The notes below the pieces were generated by a model. The model saw only the letters and a program-made list of their open reading frames with translations. It was not told the origin of the DNA and did no database searches. Made by a program: the position numbers and the translations under genes. This document shows, in pieces, positions 11,941 to 27,684 of a stretch of 27,952 nucleotides of DNA. The DNA is from a virus (lineage: Duplodnaviria; Caudoviricetes): positions 1 to 27,952 of the IMG/VR virus record IMGVR_UViG_3300005573_000243; one strand, given 5' to 3'. Numbering within the stretch: position 1 is the first letter of the stretch; every line of letters starts with the position of its first letter.

Positions 11941-12615
11941 TTAGGTATATATACCTCCATATCCATAAGCGCCAAAAGCAGATTCAGTTTCTCCAAGAGA
12001 AGTTCCGCCTGAAGTTCCACCGCTTAATGTTCCACCAAGTTGTCCAAATGAGCTTGCCAAATTACCGAAAGCCTGCCCTCGTGCTGTTCCTAATTGAGAG
12101 CTATATTGTTGAGCCTGTAACATTCCAGCAACCTGCGCCGCCTTTGCACTTAATTCTAAATTAGCTTTTTCCATTAATTCATTTACATATTCCGTGCTTA
12201 ATCCAGTCATAGAAAGTGCATCCGAAAGTTGTTTCTGCAATAAACTTGCCACATTAGAAAGATATTGTGTTTGAAGTTCAGCAAAAGCAGAAGTCGCAAT
12301 CGTAGAATTAGACAATCCCATTGCTGCCAATCGTTGAGATAATTTAGTTGCGTTCTTATTCCACCAATCATCTAACATAGCCTGATATTGCGGAGTTAGC
12401 TTTCCTTCTTGATACATTTGTAATGCTTGCTGAATATTAGCTCTTGCAGTATCAGATAAACCTTTATTAGCCTCAATAGCCGCATTTATCCGAGTTAAGT
12501 CTTCCTTTGGTATTTGTATCTTTGGAATATGAATTTTTGGCACTCTAATTGCCGAAACTGCTGCCCCTATTCCTGCTACTAAGCTTCCTATTGCTGCTAC
12601 TGCTGCCCAGCCCAT
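11941..12615 (-). CDS. DNA pilot/ejection protein
   Basis: Hydrophobic Gly/Ala N-terminus (MGWAAVAAIGSLVAGIGAAVSA), Q/A-rich helices and Gly/Ser-rich C-terminus, the usual pattern of the first podovirus ejection protein. Confidence 0.7.
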   Translation of the reverse strand: MGWAAVAAIGSLVAGIGAAVSAIRVPKIHIPKIQIPKEDLTRINAAIEANKGLSDTARANIQQALQMYQEGKLTPQYQAMLDDWWNKNATKLSQRLAAMGLSNSTIATSAFAELQTQYLSNVASLLQKQLSDALSMTGLSTEYVNELMEKANLELSAKAAQVAGMLQAQQYSSQLGTARGQAFGNLASSFGQLGGTLSGGTSGGTSLGETESAFGAYGYGGIYT

Positions 12616-12617
12616 AA

Positions 12618-13019
12618 TTACACCTCCTTTAAATAAAATTTATCTCTTTTAGTTTTAAAAAATATCATTTTTTTAGCCCCTAAAGTTTTAGCGTTTTTCA
12701 TAAAAAAGCTTTTATGAATTGGCAAAACATTACCACAAACAAGGAAAGGAAATATCACATCTCCCCTTACCTGCTTTCTCATTAAAACTTTTGCCCCTTC
12801 TAAAAAGCTTTGAGTTTTCATAATTCTTTCTGCATCATCTAAGTTACAAAAAGCATAGAACGCTACCACCCACTGTCCATTTACCGCCGCTATAAAGTAA
12901 TTTTTTACCTCATAAGCCCAAGCAATAAGATTGCATTGTTCGGTTACCTGCCAGCTATCTTTACCACAAGCTACTAAACAAAAATCTAAAATAGTGCTTA
13001 ATGGTAATCGTAACATCAT
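12618..13019 (-). CDS. Hypothetical protein (acetyltransferase-like position)
   Basis: 133 aa alpha/beta; sits between tail and ejection genes, where podoviruses often carry a GNAT-like gene. Function by synteny only. Confidence 0.4.
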   Translation of the reverse strand: MMLRLPLSTILDFCLVACGKDSWQVTEQCNLIAWAYEVKNYFIAAVNGQWVVAFYAFCNLDDAERIMKTQSFLEGAKVLMRKQVRGDVIFPFLVCGNVLPIHKSFFMKNAKTLGAKKMIFFKTKRDKFYLKEV

Positions 13020-17945: not shown

Positions 17946-19121
17946 CTATGGATATTTTTTAACTTCAGTTTGAACATAACCTTCCTTCTCAATATGAGCA
18001 GGAATATAAGTCGCTTTATTTACTGTTACTGGTTTATAACTTGCCTTATTTACTTCTACCTTCCATCTAAATAGAAATGCTTTTGCTATTGCACTTCCGC
18101 CAACTTTAACTAATCCACTTCCAATATAGCTTTTTATCTTTGAAACTAATGCTGTTCCTCCCGTTTGAATTTTACCACTGCCAACATAGGCTTTTGTTTT
18201 AGAAATTATTGCCTGTCCACTTGTCTGAATTAAACCACCACCAACATAGTTTTTTATCTTCGATACACTTGCCGTTCCACCTGTCTGTATCTGTCCTGAA
18301 CCGATATAAGCCTTTACCTTTGATAATAATGCCTGTCCGCTTACCTGAATTAAACCACCACCAATATAAGAAAATATTCTGAACTTTGAAGTCTGTGCCT
18401 GTCCACTTGTCTGAATTAAGCCACTACCTATATAAGCCTTTGTCTTAGAAACCGCCGCCTGTCCACTTGTCTGAATTAAGCCACTACCTACATAAGCTTT
18501 TGTTTTAGAAATTACCGCTTGTCCACTCGTCTGTATTTGCCCACTACCTACATAACTTTTTGTCTTTGATACGCTCGCTGACCCGCTTGTCTGTATTAAG
18601 CCTGAACCTGTATAAGTATAAGTATTAACCGCCGTGTAATAAACCGTTATCCGAATGTGGTCAATGTAAGAAATACTATTGGCCGCATAGCCTCTGCAAG
18701 CAATTGCCATTCCAAAATTAGATGCATTTATATCAGCTGCTGTCCAGCTTAGTCCCCATAAATCAGTGCTTCCGCCATAACTTTTATAAGTATCAGTTGT
18801 AGGCCAGTTATTAGTAGTATCTGCCTTATTATTTCCCGAAATAGCACCGCCTTTTACAAGTTTAACGCTATAATCTCCAATAGTTCCAGCAGCAGCTTTT
18901 CTTTCTACCTCAACCAAAATTCCATTAATAGTAGCATTAGAAGGAATAGAAAAACCAAAACCAGTAGCTTTTAAATAGTGCGAAATAATACCAGAATTAA
19001 GTGTTACACTTGCATAAACATTATCACTATACTGCGCATTAGCAGGATTACTCCAAGCAACCGTGCCTACTGAAGCATCGTCAACAAAACTACTTCCATT
19101 ATTCGGACCAGCAGAAGACAT
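17946..19121 (-). CDS. Repeat-containing virion fibre/decoration protein
   Basis: N-terminal beta-sandwich domain of about 165 aa, then nine ~20-aa repeats and a short C-terminal tail. Confidence 0.7.
   Translation of the reverse strand: MSSAGPNNGSSFVDDASVGTVAWSNPANAQYSDNVYASVTLNSGIISHYLKATGFGFSIPSNATINGILVEVERKAAAGTIGDYSVKLVKGGAISGNNKADTTNNWPTTDTYKSYGGSTDLWGLSWTAADINASNFGMAIACRGYAANSISYIDHIRITVYYTAVNTYTYTGSGLIQTSGSASVSKTKSYVGSGQIQTSGQAVISKTKAYVGSGLIQTSGQAAVSKTKAYIGSGLIQTSGQAQTSKFRIFSYIGGGLIQVSGQALLSKVKAYIGSGQIQTGGTASVSKIKNYVGGGLIQTSGQAIISKTKAYVGSGKIQTGGTALVSKIKSYIGSGLVKVGGSAIAKAFLFRWKVEVNKASYKPVTVNKATYIPAHIEKEGYVQTEVKKYP
18075..18620 (-). repeat. Intragenic tandem repeat, 9 x ~60 bp
   Basis: Consensus peptide KAY(I/V)GSGLIQTSGQAx(V/I)SKT; one unit is 2 aa longer. 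Confidence 0.9.
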
Positions 19122-19759: not shown

Positions 19760-19951
19760 TTATTTCCTCCTGCTTCTCTTTGTTTTTCGTGTTTTTCTTT
19801 TAGTCCTCTTACCTGCTCGCCCTGTTCCAGTTATTGAGTAGGCTATGGCAGAAGCTTGAGCAGGACTCCGACCACTTCTTATCTCTTGCCTTATAATCCT
19901 GCTCCGCCAATCTTCAACTCGTTCACCTTTTCTTCTTTTAGGAATAGGCAT
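19760..19951 (-). CDS. 63-aa highly basic protein
   Basis: Core motif SPAQASAIAYS and tail GKRTKRKTRKTKRSRRK; AGGGGGA SD. Confidence 0.75.
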   Translation of the reverse strand: MPIPKRRKGERVEDWRSRIIRQEIRSGRSPAQASAIAYSITGTGRAGKRTKRKTRKTKRSRRK

Positions 19952-22136: not shown

Positions 22137-22190
22137 TTACTTACGATGAATCCGGCGAACCCTTTTAACTTTGCGTCCTCTTCGTGCCAT
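22137..22190 (-). CDS. 17-aa protamine-like micropeptide MARRGRKVKRVRRIHRK
   Basis: GAGGTGA SD, ATG, TAA; first 12 nt identical to the neighbouring micro-ORF. Confidence 0.75.
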   Translation of the reverse strand: MARRGRKVKRVRRIHRK

Positions 22191-22227
22191 AGTTTTTCAC
22201 CTCGCTTTCTTTTTTTTAGATTAGTTA

Positions 22228-22272
22228 TTACTTTTTCGCTCTTTTAGTTTTCCGACCTTTTCTTCGTGCCAT
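22228..22272 (-). CDS. 14-aa protamine-like micropeptide MARRKGRKTKRAKK
   Basis: AAGGAG SD, ATG, double TAA stop. Confidence 0.75.
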   Translation of the reverse strand: MARRKGRKTKRAKK

Positions 22273-22329
22273 TGCTTTTTCTCCTTTCTTCCACTAAAAA
22301 GTGGATTAAATTTAATAGCAAACTACTCC

Positions 22330-22398
22330 TTACCGGAGTGTTTTTGCTCTTTGCAATCTTCGATAATATCTCCTAAAGTCTCGCTTATTTCTTTTCAC
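22330..22398 (-). CDS. 22-aa basic micropeptide (M)KRNKRDFRRYYRRLQRAKTLR
   Basis: GTG start 8 nt after the portal stop, preceded by GAGGAG with short spacing; stop lies inside the inverted-repeat arm. Confidence 0.5.
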   Translation of the reverse strand: MKRNKRDFRRYYRRLQRAKTLR

Positions 22399-22405
22399 TG
22401 CTCCT

Positions 22406-23971
22406 CTATTCGTTCTCCGAGCCCTTCGGGGTTTCACGTGAAACCTCCTTTTGCATTTCCTGCAAAGCTTTTGTAGCCATAAACTTCTTTATCTTTTCCT
22501 TCTTTGGTAGTGGTAACATATCAATTACAACATCCGGTGGTATGATATTATTTTCGGCAAGTGCCATTACCATTTCTTGATAAGCAAGTGCAGTTATCGG
22601 TGAAGAAGTATGAGCAAATACATCAACCCGGAATGGTATATTTAGAAGTTCTTTATATTCAATCCGAGAATTTACTATGCAATTAGCATAAGTAGTCATT
22701 ACTTCTTCTAAGAAAGCCTCTGTCCTAAGTGCCTTTTTCTTTAAAACAGTAGAAGCAAACTGAGCTAAAATACTTGCGTAAGATGCACTTCTAACATTTG
22801 CCATCGGCTTTCCAGTAAAAACTCCGATTATTCCTGATTGTTCCTTAAAGGACTCCTCATAGTATTTAATCATCTCAAAAACAAGTGCAGGTTCTAATTT
22901 TGGTAAATAAAAATCAAATTTAGCAGTAGGATCAAAAATTTCTATAACTTCACCGGGTGTCTGAAGCTTTCCTTGCATTTCGTTACTTGCAACTTGTCCT
23001 TGAAGTCCATAAACGATAAGTGGTGGTCTGGTTAACATATTTTCGATATGATCCAGTTTTTCAACCTGAGCCTTAATTTTCAAATAAAGGTTCGTGAGAA
23101 AGTGAAGTTCACTTAAGCCCCAAAAGTAGCCTTCTATTGGATTAGGAGTAAATTTGATAAATGGATGTTCACCAGGAATAAAAGGATTAACTGATTTAAT
23201 GGCAATCTGGTCACCTATAATTTGTGCCATATACCAGTCTTTTTTATCGTAGTCATACATCCATAGTTCATAAATCTCCGCATATTCACCTATTTTTTTA
23301 GGCTCAAGTGTTTCGACAATTTCCCTTTTAATTGGAGTTGCAGTAAAAGTTTTAGTTTGCTGATTCTGACTTATAACTATATCAAGAAAAGACTCAGTTC
23401 TTGATGGTGGTGGGGTTATCCTTAACTCTATATTAGGATATTTTTTTCTTGCTAAGTGAAGTGGAATTCTTGCAATATGACAAAATACTTGGTCTTTATC
23501 TAAATTTGGATTATCCTCGTAATATACTGCAAAATCGTAAGGACAAACTGGCTTAAAGTTTATCTTTCTGCCATCAAATATCGTCTTAACAATATATGAG
23601 CCATAAACAAAACTCCAGAATAGCCACTCATAGAATTCTATATCAAGGCAATCATAAATAAACTTTTCGCTTAAAACCCGTCCAAGTTTATCGAGTAGTT
23701 TTTGCGTATTATCATCAATTGTGTATTCAGGATTAGGGACTATATCAAAGATGATATTATCAGGAAGGTAAATTAGACTAACAATATCTTCGAGAGTTTT
23801 AAAGATGTGGTTCTTTATTTCGTTATTAAAAAGAATATTCCTTAATTCCTTATATCTTTCCTGTCTCAATTCAATATTGGAAAGGCAACCATCCCTGAAG
23901 TCAAGAATTTCCTGGTCAGAATAAGGAAATCCATTTTTATTTTCAGTGATTTTTTGTTTTTTATTTCTCAA
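22406..23971 (-). CDS. Portal protein
   Basis: 521 aa at the head of the virion operon; portal-like segments (FVYGSYIVK, HPFIKFTPNPIEGYFWGLS, SGIIGVFTG). Confidence 0.88.
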   Translation of the reverse strand: MRNKKQKITENKNGFPYSDQEILDFRDGCLSNIELRQERYKELRNILFNNEIKNHIFKTLEDIVSLIYLPDNIIFDIVPNPEYTIDDNTQKLLDKLGRVLSEKFIYDCLDIEFYEWLFWSFVYGSYIVKTIFDGRKINFKPVCPYDFAVYYEDNPNLDKDQVFCHIARIPLHLARKKYPNIELRITPPPSRTESFLDIVISQNQQTKTFTATPIKREIVETLEPKKIGEYAEIYELWMYDYDKKDWYMAQIIGDQIAIKSVNPFIPGEHPFIKFTPNPIEGYFWGLSELHFLTNLYLKIKAQVEKLDHIENMLTRPPLIVYGLQGQVASNEMQGKLQTPGEVIEIFDPTAKFDFYLPKLEPALVFEMIKYYEESFKEQSGIIGVFTGKPMANVRSASYASILAQFASTVLKKKALRTEAFLEEVMTTYANCIVNSRIEYKELLNIPFRVDVFAHTSSPITALAYQEMVMALAENNIIPPDVVIDMLPLPKKEKIKKFMATKALQEMQKEVSRETPKGSENE

Positions 23972-24411: not shown

Positions 24412-24440
24412 TTGATTTTTTGAATAAGGTTTGTTAAGAT
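24412..24440 (+). promoter_or_regulatory. Sigma70-type promoter (candidate sRNA promoter)
   Basis: TTGATT, 17 nt, TAAGAT with a TG extended -10. Confidence 0.55.
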
Positions 24441-24445
24441 AAAAC

Positions 24446-24515
24446 TACCCTCCTCTCATAACTTCCTCCTTTGCGGAAGCCTTTCCATAGTTTCCCAGCT
24501 ATGGGAAGGCTTTTT
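24446..24515 (+). ncRNA. Candidate ~70-nt small RNA with two anti-SD motifs
   Basis: Lies between a promoter and an intrinsic terminator, has no ORF, and carries CCUCCU at 24449 and CCUCCUUU at 24465. Confidence 0.5.
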
Positions 24516-24524
24516 ATTTTTTTT
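24479..24524 (+). terminator. Rho-independent terminator
   Basis: 12-bp stem GCCTTTCCATAG/CTATGGGAAGGC (one U-G pair on the plus strand) followed by a long T tract. Confidence 0.8.
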
Positions 24525-24538
24525 GGTATTTTTTTTGT

Positions 24539-24566
24539 TTGACTTAAGGAAAAAGCTTGATAAAAT
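24539..24566 (+). promoter_or_regulatory. Sigma70-type promoter, copy 1
   Basis: TTGACT, 16 nt, TAAAAT with TGn extension; similar to 27521-27548. Confidence 0.75.
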
Positions 24567-24583
24567 GGTAAGAAAAACAAACA

Positions 24584-24704
24584 AAGGTGGTGCGAGTATG
24601 CAAAAATTCCAAAGAAAATTAGATAGTTTAGCCAGTAAAGCCCTTGCGGAAAAACCCACCAAAGGCTCGCACTACCTTATCGCAAGGGTTTTTACTGGCT
24701 TTTT
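24584..24704 (+). promoter_or_regulatory. Structured leader RNA, copy 1 (hairpin plus loop-to-RBS pairing)
   Basis: Stem 24630-24648/24681-24700 plus T tract; loop segment 24665-24678 is complementary to 24584-24597. Confidence 0.75.
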
Positions 24705-24732
24705 GGAGGTAATTTATGGAGATAGAAATTGA
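24598..24732 (+). CDS. Putative 44-aa leader peptide (MQKFQRKL...)
   Basis: AAGGTGGT SD-like sequence; runs through the hairpin and overlaps the ParB-MTase start. Confidence 0.45.
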   Translation: MQKFQRKLDSLASKALAEKPTKGSHYLIARVFTGFLEVIYGDRN

Positions 24733-25789
24733 AAAAATAAAAGACACCGCACCAAGAAGAGAACACGGAAATATTGAAGAGTTAAAGAATTCTATCAAGG
24801 AAGTTGGTCTCATTAATCCACTTACAATTAACCAGAATTATCGCTTACTTGCAGGTAGAAGGCGCTTTCAAGCTCTAAAAGAACTTGGTTTCAAAACCGT
24901 TCCGGTCCGAGTGCTTGAAAGTGAAGATGAGCTTTTCGATTTCCGGGTTGCACTGATTGAGAATATCCAAAGGAAAAACCTGAGCGATCCGGAGTTAGCG
25001 GCGGCGATCAAGGAATATGATGAGATGATGAGGAGGCTAAAAGGATCAAAACCAAAAGGAAACATAGAGACCTTAAAACAATTTACCGATTTACCACAGT
25101 GTAATAAATCGGAAGGTTGGACTCAAGAGCAAACCGCCAAAAACCTGAATATCTCTCAACCGGCAGTAAGCAAAGCCATCCAAATAGCCACTGCCATTGA
25201 AGAGTATCCGGAATTAGCAAAAGAGAGGAAGGGAAATGTAATTATCAAGAAATATAAAAGAAAAAAAGATGAAGAGAAAATTAAAAATAAAAAATTTCCG
25301 GTAATTGAAGGAAAATATAAAACAATTTTAATTGATCCACCCTGGGATTATGAACTTAATCTCGACGGCAGGGCAAAGCCTGAATATGCAACAATGGATT
25401 TAGAAGAACTGAAAAAAATGCATATAGAGAAATATGCGGAAGAAAATTGCCATCTTTATATTTGGAGCACAAATAATAATATTCCACTCGCTTTGGAACT
25501 TGGTTCTTATTGGGGTTTTTCTTATAAAACCTTAATTACCTGGGTCAAACCATCAATAGGTATGGGTTCTTATTTTAGAAACAGCACAGAACAACTTTTA
25601 TTTTTTGTTAAGGGGAAATTATCTACAAGAACAAAAGATATTGAAACTCATTTTGAAGCCCCCCGTGGAAAGCATTCTGAGAAACCAGAATATTCATACC
25701 AATTAATTGAAAAAGCTTCATATCCAGCTTATTTAGAAATATTTGGCAGAAAGAAAAGAGAAGGTTGGAATGTATGGGGAAATTTTTAA
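24716..25789 (+). CDS. ParB-like domain fused to MT-A70 family adenine methyltransferase
   Basis: ParB motifs GLINPL, LLAGRRR, ENIQRKNL; HTH WTQEQTAKNLNISQPAVS; MT-A70 motifs ILIDPPW, HSEKP, LEIFGR. Confidence 0.9.
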   Translation: MEIEIEKIKDTAPRREHGNIEELKNSIKEVGLINPLTINQNYRLLAGRRRFQALKELGFKTVPVRVLESEDELFDFRVALIENIQRKNLSDPELAAAIKEYDEMMRRLKGSKPKGNIETLKQFTDLPQCNKSEGWTQEQTAKNLNISQPAVSKAIQIATAIEEYPELAKERKGNVIIKKYKRKKDEEKIKNKKFPVIEGKYKTILIDPPWDYELNLDGRAKPEYATMDLEELKKMHIEKYAEENCHLYIWSTNNNIPLALELGSYWGFSYKTLITWVKPSIGMGSYFRNSTEQLLFFVKGKLSTRTKDIETHFEAPRGKHSEKPEYSYQLIEKASYPAYLEIFGRKKREGWNVWGNF

Positions 25790-26283
25790 TTGACGACGAA
25801 TGGTCAAGAAAATGTGATAGAAAATTAAAAAAATTTTGGAAGCAAATTAGCTATGAAGGGCGTTTTATTTTTGCTGGGTCCAGCTTATTGCAAAAGACCC
25901 TCGGAATCGATGTTATATTACAATCTCAAAATGACGACAAAGATATTACCATAGATACAAAACATATAAGACCAAGAAAACAACAGCTTAATTGTTTTTT
26001 TCTTGAAGAAGAAAGTTGTCCCGATAAAAAGACTTTAGGATGGATTTTAAAAGAAAATGGTTGGCCCGATTATATTTTTTATTGTTTCTGGATAAATGAA
26101 AATGAATGTAAGGCTTATATTATTCCTTTCATTCCATTAAGAGAATGGTTTATCAAAAATAGAGAGAAATATCCTTTATTTCAAAATATTGATACAATAA
26201 ATAAAACCACTGGAAGACTTGTCCCAATTAACCAGCTTTCCAAGGAAATAAAAATTATAGAAAAGTATATTAAAATTCAATAA
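25765..26283 (+). CDS. Putative PD-(D/E)XK nuclease-fold protein
   Basis: GID...IDTK spacing followed by FFLEEES...GW; overlaps the MTase 3' end. Confidence 0.6.
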   Translation: MECMGKFLIDDEWSRKCDRKLKKFWKQISYEGRFIFAGSSLLQKTLGIDVILQSQNDDKDITIDTKHIRPRKQQLNCFFLEEESCPDKKTLGWILKENGWPDYIFYCFWINENECKAYIIPFIPLREWFIKNREKYPLFQNIDTINKTTGRLVPINQLSKEIKIIEKYIKIQ

Positions 26284-26315
26284 CTTACTAAAATTTAAAA
26301 CGAGAAAGATAACCT

Positions 26316-26636
26316 ATGAACAACATTCATAAAAAATTACTATTATCACATTTTTGCCTGAAAGATTGCACTCTTTCCTGGAGTGCAAAAGGATTATATT
26401 CATACATTCTTGACCTTCCAAAAGATAAAGTCACACTCAAAGAATTAGAAGAATATACATCTACCGATATACTTGAAGATAGACAACTTGCTAATATTCT
26501 TGAAGAATTAGTTAAACAAGGATACCTTAAACAGCGCAACAAGAATGGAAAAGTTGAATATAGAATAAATGAAATGCCACCTTTGCTTAAAGAAGCCTGC
26601 CAGTTAGTTGGAAAATGGCAATGTGAAAAAAGGTAA
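26316..26636 (+). CDS. Winged-helix protein resembling the N-terminal domain of phage replication initiators
   Basis: LSWSAKGLYSYILDLP...LEELVKQGYL. Confidence 0.7.
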   Translation: MNNIHKKLLLSHFCLKDCTLSWSAKGLYSYILDLPKDKVTLKELEEYTSTDILEDRQLANILEELVKQGYLKQRNKNGKVEYRINEMPPLLKEACQLVGKWQCEKR

Positions 26637-26638
26637 AA

Positions 26639-27499
26639 ATGCGATCTCCTATTATCTGGTTCGGTGGTAAAGGAAATATGGTTAAAAAACTACTAAAATT
26701 AATACCTTCACACAAAATCTATGTAGAGGTATTTGGGGGAGGAGGAAGCTTGCTTTTTGCCAAAAAACCATCTCCAATTGAAATATATAATGATTTAGAT
26801 AGCGGATTAGTTAATTTTTTCCGTGTTCTGCGTGATCAAGAAAAATTTAAGGAATTCCATCGATTAGTATCTCTTACCCCTTATAGCAGGGAAGAGTATT
26901 ATTTTTACCGTGAAACCTGGAAGGAATGTGAAAATGATATAGAGCGCGCTTATCGGTGGTTTATAGTAGCAAGAATGAGTTTTAGTGGAAGATTTGGGGG
27001 TGGTTGGAATTTTATAATTACCAGAAGCAATCGTAATATGGCGGGTACCTGCTCCCAATATCTAAGTATAATTGAAGAATTACCAGAAATTCATCAACGG
27101 ATAATGCGAGTGCAAATTGAGCATAAAGATTTCCGGGAATTAATTCCTATTTATGATACATCAGAAACACTATTCTATTGTGACCCACCTTATATATCAG
27201 AAACACGCAATAATGAAAAATATTACAAATGCGAAATGAGTATAGAAGATCATAAATATCTTGTTGATTTACTCTTGCAAATTAAAGGTAAAGCACTTCT
27301 TTCTGGGTATCAACATCCTATTTATAAACCGCTTGAAGATGCCGGATGGATAAGAAAAGATTATAAAACAGCCTGTCACGCAGCAGGTAGAACACGATAT
27401 ACTAAAATTTTAGGCAAAGGTTCAGGTATGGAAATGCAACCACGCATAGAAAGCGTCTGGATTTCACCCAACGCTTGTATTCAACCTACTTTGCTATAA
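26639..27499 (+). CDS. Dam-family (D12 class) N6-adenine DNA methyltransferase
   Basis: WFGGKG, YVEVFGGGGS, IYNDLD, FYCDPPY, LSGY. Target sequence cannot be inferred. Confidence 0.93.
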   Translation: MRSPIIWFGGKGNMVKKLLKLIPSHKIYVEVFGGGGSLLFAKKPSPIEIYNDLDSGLVNFFRVLRDQEKFKEFHRLVSLTPYSREEYYFYRETWKECENDIERAYRWFIVARMSFSGRFGGGWNFIITRSNRNMAGTCSQYLSIIEELPEIHQRIMRVQIEHKDFRELIPIYDTSETLFYCDPPYISETRNNEKYYKCEMSIEDHKYLVDLLLQIKGKALLSGYQHPIYKPLEDAGWIRKDYKTACHAAGRTRYTKILGKGSGMEMQPRIESVWISPNACIQPTLL

Positions 27500-27520
27500 A
27501 TACAAAATGAATTTTTCCCC

Positions 27521-27548
27521 TTGACTATTAGGAAAAGATTGGTAAAGT
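27521..27548 (+). promoter_or_regulatory. Sigma70-type promoter, copy 2
   Basis: TTGACT, 16 nt, TAAAGT with TGn extension. Confidence 0.7.
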
Positions 27549-27557
27549 TGAAGAAAA

Positions 27558-27661
27558 ACGGAGGCGCAATTATGAGGAAATATCAAAAAATTAAAATAAT
27601 AAAAAGCCCTTACGGTTCCCACCTAATAACTGCGCCTCCGTGTCCGTAAGGGCTTTTATTT
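27558..27661 (+). promoter_or_regulatory. Structured leader RNA, copy 2
   Basis: Perfect 14-bp stem 27602-27615/27644-27657; loop segment 27626-27641 is complementary to 27558-27573 (15 of 16). Confidence 0.78.
27572..27649 (+). CDS. Putative 25-aa leader peptide MRKYQKIKIIKSPYGSHLITAPPCP
   Basis: GGAGG, 7 nt, ATG; stop lies within the 3' arm of the hairpin. Confidence 0.45.
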   Translation: MRKYQKIKIIKSPYGSHLITAPPCP

Positions 27662-27684
27662 AAAACAAAGAAGGAGAATGAGCT

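Follow-up and report, generated by a model that had tools for sequence, protein, structure and literature searches.

Leader RNAs with two crossed helices as a likely uncatalogued on/off switch for phage methyltransferase and replication genes

In the trp, his and pyrBI leader-peptide attenuators a short ORF overlaps an intrinsic terminator, as it does in the phage leaders that we describe here. Their mechanisms differ in sign from the one proposed below for these leaders, in which initiation would bring about termination through occupancy of the ribosome-binding site (RBS). In the IncI-alpha plasmid ColIb-P9 and in IncB plasmids, which have a leader peptide, the pseudoknot partner adjoins the Shine-Dalgarno (SD) sequence of rep. 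ColIb-P9 repZ and IncB further resemble the leaders in having a leader ORF, a hairpin loop engaged in a long-range helix and a replication initiator downstream (in the parts of PMC8383071 and PMC3753616 used here), and the same part of PMC8383071 places the pT181 and pIP501 attenuators before a replication initiator, with two alternative folds of which one is a terminator, again as in the leaders. In P4 CI (seqA-cI-seqC), P1/P7 c4 and Gifsy-1 IsrK, according to the sections of PMC4825925 that concern them, a short RNA heads an operon with replication genes, has a complementary site upstream and acts by premature termination, and the leaders share this plan. They also share with c4 a loop element that stays constant beside one that varies, the latter determining specificity in c4 (part of PMC5320573).

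The leaders lie in a phage record of 27,952 bp, with completeness rated 68%, that was analyzed over its whole length and is called the window here. This phage is present in two hot-spring metagenome runs. Its minus strand carries the terminase, portal and major head genes, and from 24539 the plus strand carries, in order, a ParB_N-MT-A70 gene, an unknown gene, a short wHTH gene, a D12 methyltransferase gene and an HTH_36 initiator gene (Table 1). Contigs from both runs contain population joints of 24704 to 26309, 26600 to 27504 and 27557 to 27672, and the ParB-methyltransferase pair, the D12 methyltransferase and the leader-plus-wHTH unit are optional, swappable modules. A search for ParB-MT-A70 homologues gave 917, and homologues of the methyltransferases point to scattered phyla and to no single host group. 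GGAGG ribosome sites are typical of the other genes in the window (22 before an ATG).

An earlier note, made from the letters alone, had proposed that one architecture occurs at 24539-24732 and again at 27521-27661, and every feature that it named was found in both copies. Each has a promoter-like site, AAGAAAAAC, an arm (arm A), a leader ATG, a 10-bp hairpin, the motif CCCACC, the complement of arm A (A'), a U tract and the RBS of the next gene. Since the promoter pattern occurs at 56 sites in the window against 59 expected, a match by itself is not above chance, and the putative promoters are supported instead by their recurring position. In both copies the first base of the arm helix lies exactly 14 nt ahead of the leader AUG. 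Only 1-2 nt separate the end of A' from the 3' strand of the hairpin, whose loop measures 30 nt in copy 1 and 28 nt in copy 2. The helix had been given as 9 bp, which was too short: it has 14 bp (two of them G-U) in copy 1 and 11 bp plus 4 in copy 2. That it is crossed with the hairpin stem holds in both copies, and the two have no stem bases in common. The U tract lies 82-92 nt past the leader AUG in the three full versions (the third is described below), and all three have predicted leader ORFs of 25-44 codons with an SD. The leader peptides differ in length and frame and contain no run of regulatory codons; searched as a protein family, they matched only the same cassettes and two long repetitive proteins. 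No conserved cis partner was found for CCCACC, and GGTGGG occurs once on the plus strand, inside the region of the minus-strand portal gene. The longer motif CCCACC-WAA might serve an antisense RNA as a toehold, bind a protein or act as a generic anti-SD sequence.

Table 1. Positions in the window of the two leader copies and of the genes around them
Feature	Position	Strand	Remarks
Copy 1 promoter-like site, sigma70 type, TTGACT-16-TAAAAT, TG extended -10	24539..24566	+	-10 kept, -35 changed in L126
Copy 1 arm A, the 14 nt before the leader AUG, contains Shine-Dalgarno	24584..24597	+	pairs with 24665-24678
Copy 1 leader ORF, 44 aa, ATG 24598	24598..24732	+	runs through the hairpin; 17 nt overlap with the ParB-methyltransferase start
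Copy 1 hairpin extension, absent in copy 2	24630..24639	+	10 bp, pairs with 24691-24700
Copy 1 terminator-like stem, 5' strand	24640..24649	+	10 bp with 24680-24689
Copy 1 loop motif CCCACC-WAA	24655..24663	+	kept in 3/3 full versions
Copy 1 A', complement of arm A inside the loop	24665..24678	+	14 bp, 2 G-U
Copy 1 stem 3' strand (24680-24689), first U tract, extension partner, second U tract	24680..24704	+	
RBS GGAGGT and start codon of the ParB-MT-A70 gene	24705..24718	+	
ParB_N + MT-A70 methyltransferase	24716..25789	+	missing with the next gene in one population variant
Short wHTH gene, resembles the N-terminus of phage replication initiators	26316..26636	+	phrog_270, E 7.6e-6
D12-class adenine methyltransferase	26639..27499	+	optional insert; L336 lacks it
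Copy 2 promoter-like site, TTGACT-16-TAAAGT, TG extension	27521..27548	+	identical in L336
Copy 2 arm A	27558..27573	+	11 bp Watson-Crick, 27558-27568 with 27631-27641; 4 bp over the AUG past one mismatch
Copy 2 leader ORF, 25 aa, ATG 27572	27572..27649	+	stop inside the 3' stem strand, same place as in L336
Copy 2 hairpin	27606..27661	+	5' strand 27606-27615, CCCACC 27618, A' 27626-27641, 3' strand 27644-27653, U tract
Replication initiator with HTH_36 domain, truncated by the contig end	27685..27952	+	phrog_270, E 5.5e-18

Used alone as a metagenome query, the copy-1 hairpin returned 35 stretches, five of which had CCCACC with an arm helix; two of the five were the window's own record. Another of the five was a sister phage (L336) that is identical at copy 1, and a generic scan showed that L336 has a third version behind the copy-2 promoter. 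The third version has an 18-bp Watson-Crick arm helix over the SD and AUG, a stem with altered letters that still pair, the retained CCCACC, a 31-nt loop and a 27-aa leader, and it precedes another O-like wHTH gene. Its leader stops at the same place as that of copy 2 despite a 3-nt indel in the loop and a UAA/UAG change. Conservation of the pairing between arm A and the loop in homologues was a check named by the earlier note, and in L336 this pairing is kept with new letters. A fourth variant, seen in contigs of both runs, has the copy-1 promoter and 3' flank around a replaced interior with a different arm and a leader starting MKKFQ; its interior is known from the first 30 letters, and the loop lies outside them. 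The copy-1 cassette is also carried, beside packaging genes, by a phage with a different terminase and different neighbouring genes (L126). From this cassette and the interior swap in variant 4, it follows that the leader elements move as modules. Three of the four versions (copy 2, L336 and variant 4) sit directly before replication-initiator-type wHTH genes, in variant 4 the same short wHTH gene as at 26316..26636; copy 1 is separated from the wHTH gene by two inserted genes.

When the three full versions were aligned on the AUG without gaps, 41/42 cells paired with the loop over the 14 nt that cover the SD, and letters had changed on both sides in 10/14 columns of the arm helix. Because there are only three full versions, from closely related phages, these counts are not independent events. 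With L126 as a fourth row, 97.9% of 96 cells were paired, a level reached in none of 500 shuffles and compared with 33-50% in slid registers; as counts on a few related sequences, these do not amount to a formal covariation test. Dinucleotide-shuffled 5' segments reached the observed helix length against the loop in 0, 4 and 0 of 5000 trials for copy 1, copy 2 and L336. G-U pairs, possible on one strand only, number five on the plus strand versus one on the minus strand over the three versions. Cognate arm-loop duplexes were predicted at -25.7 to -29.5 kcal/mol versus -6.5 to -15.2 kcal/mol for non-cognate ones, a difference of 10-23 kcal/mol, and in register 7-10 of 14 positions of a non-cognate arm still pair. 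The note's claim that compensatory changes keep both helices thus stands for the arm helix; for the hairpin it amounts, between the window copies, to one two-sided change in 10 pairs and G-U/G-C swaps at the ends. These comparisons are strong sequence evidence for the two crossed helices, with a covarying arm helix, and the leaders form a real, structured RNA family. The arm helix diverged more than the stem (10/14 versus 2/10, Fisher p 0.036, post hoc). Faster change in the arm would suit selection for specificity, which in turn would imply a role in trans, but looser constraint would look identical.

The leader family is narrow, with three full versions in closely related phages. A helix over the SD and ATG was found for 16 of 889 terminator-like hairpins (506 sequences) versus 0/558 in shuffled DNA, and these 16 comprise four distinct family sequences, duplicates of these, and one further, weak case. 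Scans of viral contigs with DNA patterns listed at least 120 loci from 11 of 64 parts in one case and at least 120 from 10 of 64 parts in another, in both cases chance matches; a further scan gave 0 matches. A scan with 40 matches contained two members (L371 and L395), both with the copy-1 cassette, and one with 72 loci returned the same two records (as L446 and L492), again with the copy-1 cassette. No new member was among the matches listed by the viral scans. Among 31 matches of a GTDB pattern scan there were 0 members. A covariance model built on four sequences (R1) was searched against two phylum samples, each with 151 genomes, and matched one genome per sample, neither match being a member: one was rejected as it sits inside a polA-like ORF and the other as an ordinary terminator. 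We found no third copy in the window, only A-rich matches at 21% cover with blastn of copy 1 against phage records, and none with blastn of copy 2 against plasmids. MT-A70 neighbourhoods in two phylum samples and four phage stretches (58 loci, including two from genomes marked unpublished, G552 and G580) held 189 promoter-plus-ATG sites and no new member.

Against this background the leaders can be compared with the described systems. The upstream target of P4 CI, P1 c4 and IsrK (seqA, a1/b1) has its counterpart in arm A, with 11-18 bp. A second, downstream target over the next RBS (seqC, a2/b2) was not among the best 10 duplexes of either loop in a scan of both strands of the window. The leaders form a single hairpin in place of the three-stem c4 fold. 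Their upstream site serves as the RBS of a leader ORF; for P4, by contrast, a primary transcript that is not translated has been described. Genes of the icd/kil/ash or antirepressor type were not recognized; the next genes are ParB-MT-A70 or replication-initiator-type wHTH genes. Unlike pT181 and pIP501, the leaders have no consistent counter-transcript promoter (sites occur in two of the three full versions, at unlike distances), and their putative antiterminator pairs with the loop instead of the stem and is itself an RBS. Terminator and arm helix exclude each other in nested folding only, where crossed pairs cannot be scored, and they have no stem bases in common. The ColIb-P9 pseudoknot activates rep translation, whereas here the partner lies upstream, where it covers the SD of the leader itself, and the hairpin is followed by a U tract. 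Loop pairing just before the rep SD, as in IncI-alpha/IncB, was not found, the covarying partner being upstream on the leader RBS. By comparison with trp, his and pyrBI, there is no regulatory codon run and no conserved peptide, and the antiterminator borrows no terminator strand. A type I toxin-antitoxin mRNA was considered and rejected; the peptides are Lys-rich and polar by inspection, and copy 1 has no stop before the terminator. Rfam covariance models, which the earlier note had suggested running, gave 0 matches at E<=1 in the window, L336 and three further loci described below (L247, L330 and L358), that is, no catalogued family. Given that no second target ranked among the best duplexes, that c4 fold, Rfam match and consistent counter-transcript are missing, and that the partner lies upstream, the leaders are a member of none of P4 CI/P1 c4, pT181/pIP501 or IncI-alpha/IncB. 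Earlier caution about assigning them to IncI/IncB, P4 CI or P1 C4 was well placed, as the defining features of each fail. By analogy, they would seem to work most like P4 CI/P1 c4, the plasmid rep attenuators and the pseudoknot of ColIb-P9.

Nested folding at 37 °C up to the first U tract gave 0.96-1.00 for the arm helix and 0.00 for the terminator when arm A was free, and 0.93-1.00 for the terminator when arm A was blocked; results at 65 °C were similar. This two-state outcome is partly forced because ViennaRNA cannot score both crossed helices together. In growing transcripts the arm helix was complete before the 3' stem strand emerged. When copy 1 was folded to its second U tract with arm A free, the extended hairpin won (terminator 0.91, arm helix 0.00), so that an ON state in copy 1 would need to be kinetic.

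We propose that the leaders are attenuators in which a ribosome, or a copy of the loop acting in trans, sits on the leader ribosome site and causes termination, and we put the probability of this at roughly one half. Free arm A would pair into the terminator loop, so that polymerase could continue into the methyltransferase and replication genes; once arm A was covered by a ribosome or another RNA, the terminator would close. The arm helix would form ahead of synthesis of the 3' stem strand and hinder stem closure, a hindrance that we take to be steric because helix and stem share no stem bases. As arm A is the leader RBS, a ribosome can block it, and the usual occupant would be an initiating ribosome loaded before A' is made. 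Such a ribosome would be too far behind polymerase to melt a terminator at the observed distance from the AUG. Terminators of E. coli that lie no further than 100 nt into an ORF retain most of their efficiency despite translation (in the part of PMC4824070 on this point), and it is from this and the position of the U tract that occupancy is taken to favour termination, an argument built on E. coli data from which the phage host may differ. Efficient leader initiation would then mean OFF and poor initiation ON. Once its own arm has let go, the loop of the terminated short RNA could act in trans and occupy arm A on newly made transcripts, which might provide variant-specific negative feedback, like immunity or copy-number control. 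That leader translation or a trans RNA decides between termination and read-through had been suggested before; the full version in L336, the fixed AUG register and the two-state folding support an attenuator of this kind, whichever input acts and in whichever direction leader translation works, and are compatible with a pseudoknot as well as with exclusive folds. Judged by their sequences, it is likely that these leaders switch the methyltransferase and replication genes that follow them on and off, in a form not yet catalogued.

Several observations count against this attenuator or fit another reading equally well. A loop of 28-31 nt is unusual for an efficient terminator, CCCACC-WAA is not accounted for, and L247, an analogue, folds into the terminator at 37 °C while its arm is free. 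The conserved stop in the 3' strand (copy 2 and L336) and the gene overlap of copy 1 would equally fit translation-driven read-through. Under this opposite sign, which we consider doubtful, the two helices exist together as a pseudoknot and transcription terminates by default; leader translation brings read-through or coupling in the manner of pyrBI, and the leader is silenced by the arm helix, formed in cis or with a short RNA in trans. It would be in keeping with the absence of common stem bases, with the fixed place of the stop codon, with the overlap of the copy-1 and L247 leaders with the next start codon, and with the repression of terminators by ribosomes near stop codons (PMC4824070, in part). 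The terminator nevertheless lies 82-92 nt past the AUG, within the distance over which the E. coli ribosome did not catch polymerase (PMC4824070, in part). In addition, a ribosome could load before A' exists, the 18-bp helix within the 31-nt loop of L336 would be sterically tight, and copy 1 keeps neither frame nor stop.

The remaining explanations assign the element to other molecules. A counter-transcribed antisense RNA that ends at the same hairpin could use CCCACC as a toehold, block the arm helix and cause termination, as in pT181/pIP501 or by the pseudoknot competition of ColIb-P9. The position before replication initiators would suit it, and the reverse complement of CCCACC-WAA starts with a YUNR motif in 3/3 versions, a motif read through the U-turn rule. 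Minus-strand promoter-like sites follow the copy-1 hairpin at distances of 86 and 105 nt and the L336 hairpin at 11 and 46 nt, but there is none within 170 nt in copy 2 or L247, their positions are not conserved, and such sites are common in AT-rich DNA. Because an antisense RNA spanning the whole hairpin would also tend to destroy the terminator, we think this mechanism improbable. We give just as little credit to the idea that the terminated 110-125-nt RNA is a trans-acting sRNA whose C-rich loop blocks the SD sites of further genes, in the phage or the host, with arm A serving only to keep the RNA inactive. LhrC RNAs use C-rich terminator loops as anti-SD seeds (in a part of PMC8079631), and the copy-2 loop was predicted to pair with the RBS of the minus-strand gene 11941-12615 at -27.4 kcal/mol, compared with -29.5 for its own arm. 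A coding-region site scores better, however (-30.7, among the ten best copy-2 duplexes), which places these energies near background; the duplex scan of the window gave no matching RBS target for copy 1, and the arm helix covaries in cis. Very improbable, finally, is a DNA-level feature, either a recombination site or a single-strand origin, that marks cassette swaps. Joints at the element edges (24580 to 24680 and 27557 to 27672) and the same copy-1 cassette in the different phage L126 would be expected of one, but the joints are also where sequence likeness simply stops. Moreover, the helix is registered on the AUG and covers the SD, G-U pairs favour one strand, and a promoter and a U tract flank the element.

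If the sign of the proposed attenuator holds, the leaders would sense ribosome loading directly and inversely, through an antiterminator that acts on the terminator loop and takes no stem strand; in the open-access literature we found no description of an inverse ribosome-loading attenuator with a loop-acting antiterminator. Uncultured hot-spring phages would thereby gain an RNA-only gate on replication and methylation genes. As a tentative and rather speculative extension, the leader may be a self-contained cassette of ~120 nt for phage immunity or copy control that includes neither a protein regulator nor a separate antisense gene. In it the RBS would be the antiterminator, ribosome loading would turn the operon OFF, the loop of the terminated RNA would lock new transcripts off in trans, and a swap of the 14-nt arm/loop pair would create a new orthogonal specificity. 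Such a swap would insulate co-occurring phages, or two operons in one genome, from each other. The three natural, nearly orthogonal versions would be compact and possibly heat-tolerant regulator parts, and they make action in cis versus in trans testable.

Crossed designs that resemble the leaders were also seen in unrelated phages, and we regard them as analogous. In L247 the promoter-like site reads TTGACA-16-TAAACT, and a 12-bp helix, which stops 1 nt short of the leader AUG, is crossed with a 14-bp stem that has a U-rich tail; the 46-aa leader overlaps a 92-aa ORF, which is followed by ParB-MT-A70. The 92-aa ORF may resemble the N-termini of replisome organisers, a lead short of a confident match. 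Against the leader family L247 scores 18.8 bits (E 0.29), which does not establish homology. In L330 and L358 a 5' arm pairs into the hairpin loop and there is no SD. A' is at the 5' side of the loop in L247 and in L330/L358, and CCCACC is absent from them. The element of L247, in an unrelated phage, spans 2014-2210 with promoter, masked RBS and a crossed terminator with a branched loop; at 1215-1345 of L330 and ~745-870 of L358 (minus strand) a 12-14-nt arm lies directly behind the promoter, with letters that differ between the loci.

Some further observations concern the phages themselves. The copy-1 cassette of L126 (2743-3088) is divergent to the packaging genes and has a changed -35 box with the extended -10 kept. 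On the minus strand of L336, 3307-3360 contains a perfect extended -10 just inside the downstream wHTH gene, with none seen in copy 2, and this site would yield an antisense RNA of ~90 nt across the RBS and hairpin. At 12593-12632 (minus strand) of the window, the RBS of gene 11941-12615 resembles arm A of copy 2, which may be chance. Just upstream of copy 1, 24414-24522 (plus strand) may encode a separate small RNA, with a promoter-like TTGATT-17-TAAGAT followed by ~28 unpaired C/U-rich nt with two CCTCC motifs and an 18-bp terminator; read on the minus strand, the same region has a hairpin, an SD and a four-codon ORF, and it is missing from L126. At the contig start a 27-nt inverted repeat (1-27 and 140-166, 96% complementary, 112 nt apart) overlaps a 77-aa ORF. 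A degenerate 60-nt coding repeat occupies 18108-18616 within the 391-aa minus-strand gene 17946-19121. Between the portal gene and the next gene, 22160-22450 (minus strand) holds three hairpins and two very short Arg/Lys-rich ORFs starting MARR, which are like the 63-aa basic ORF at 19760-19951 and possibly encode DNA-condensing peptides.
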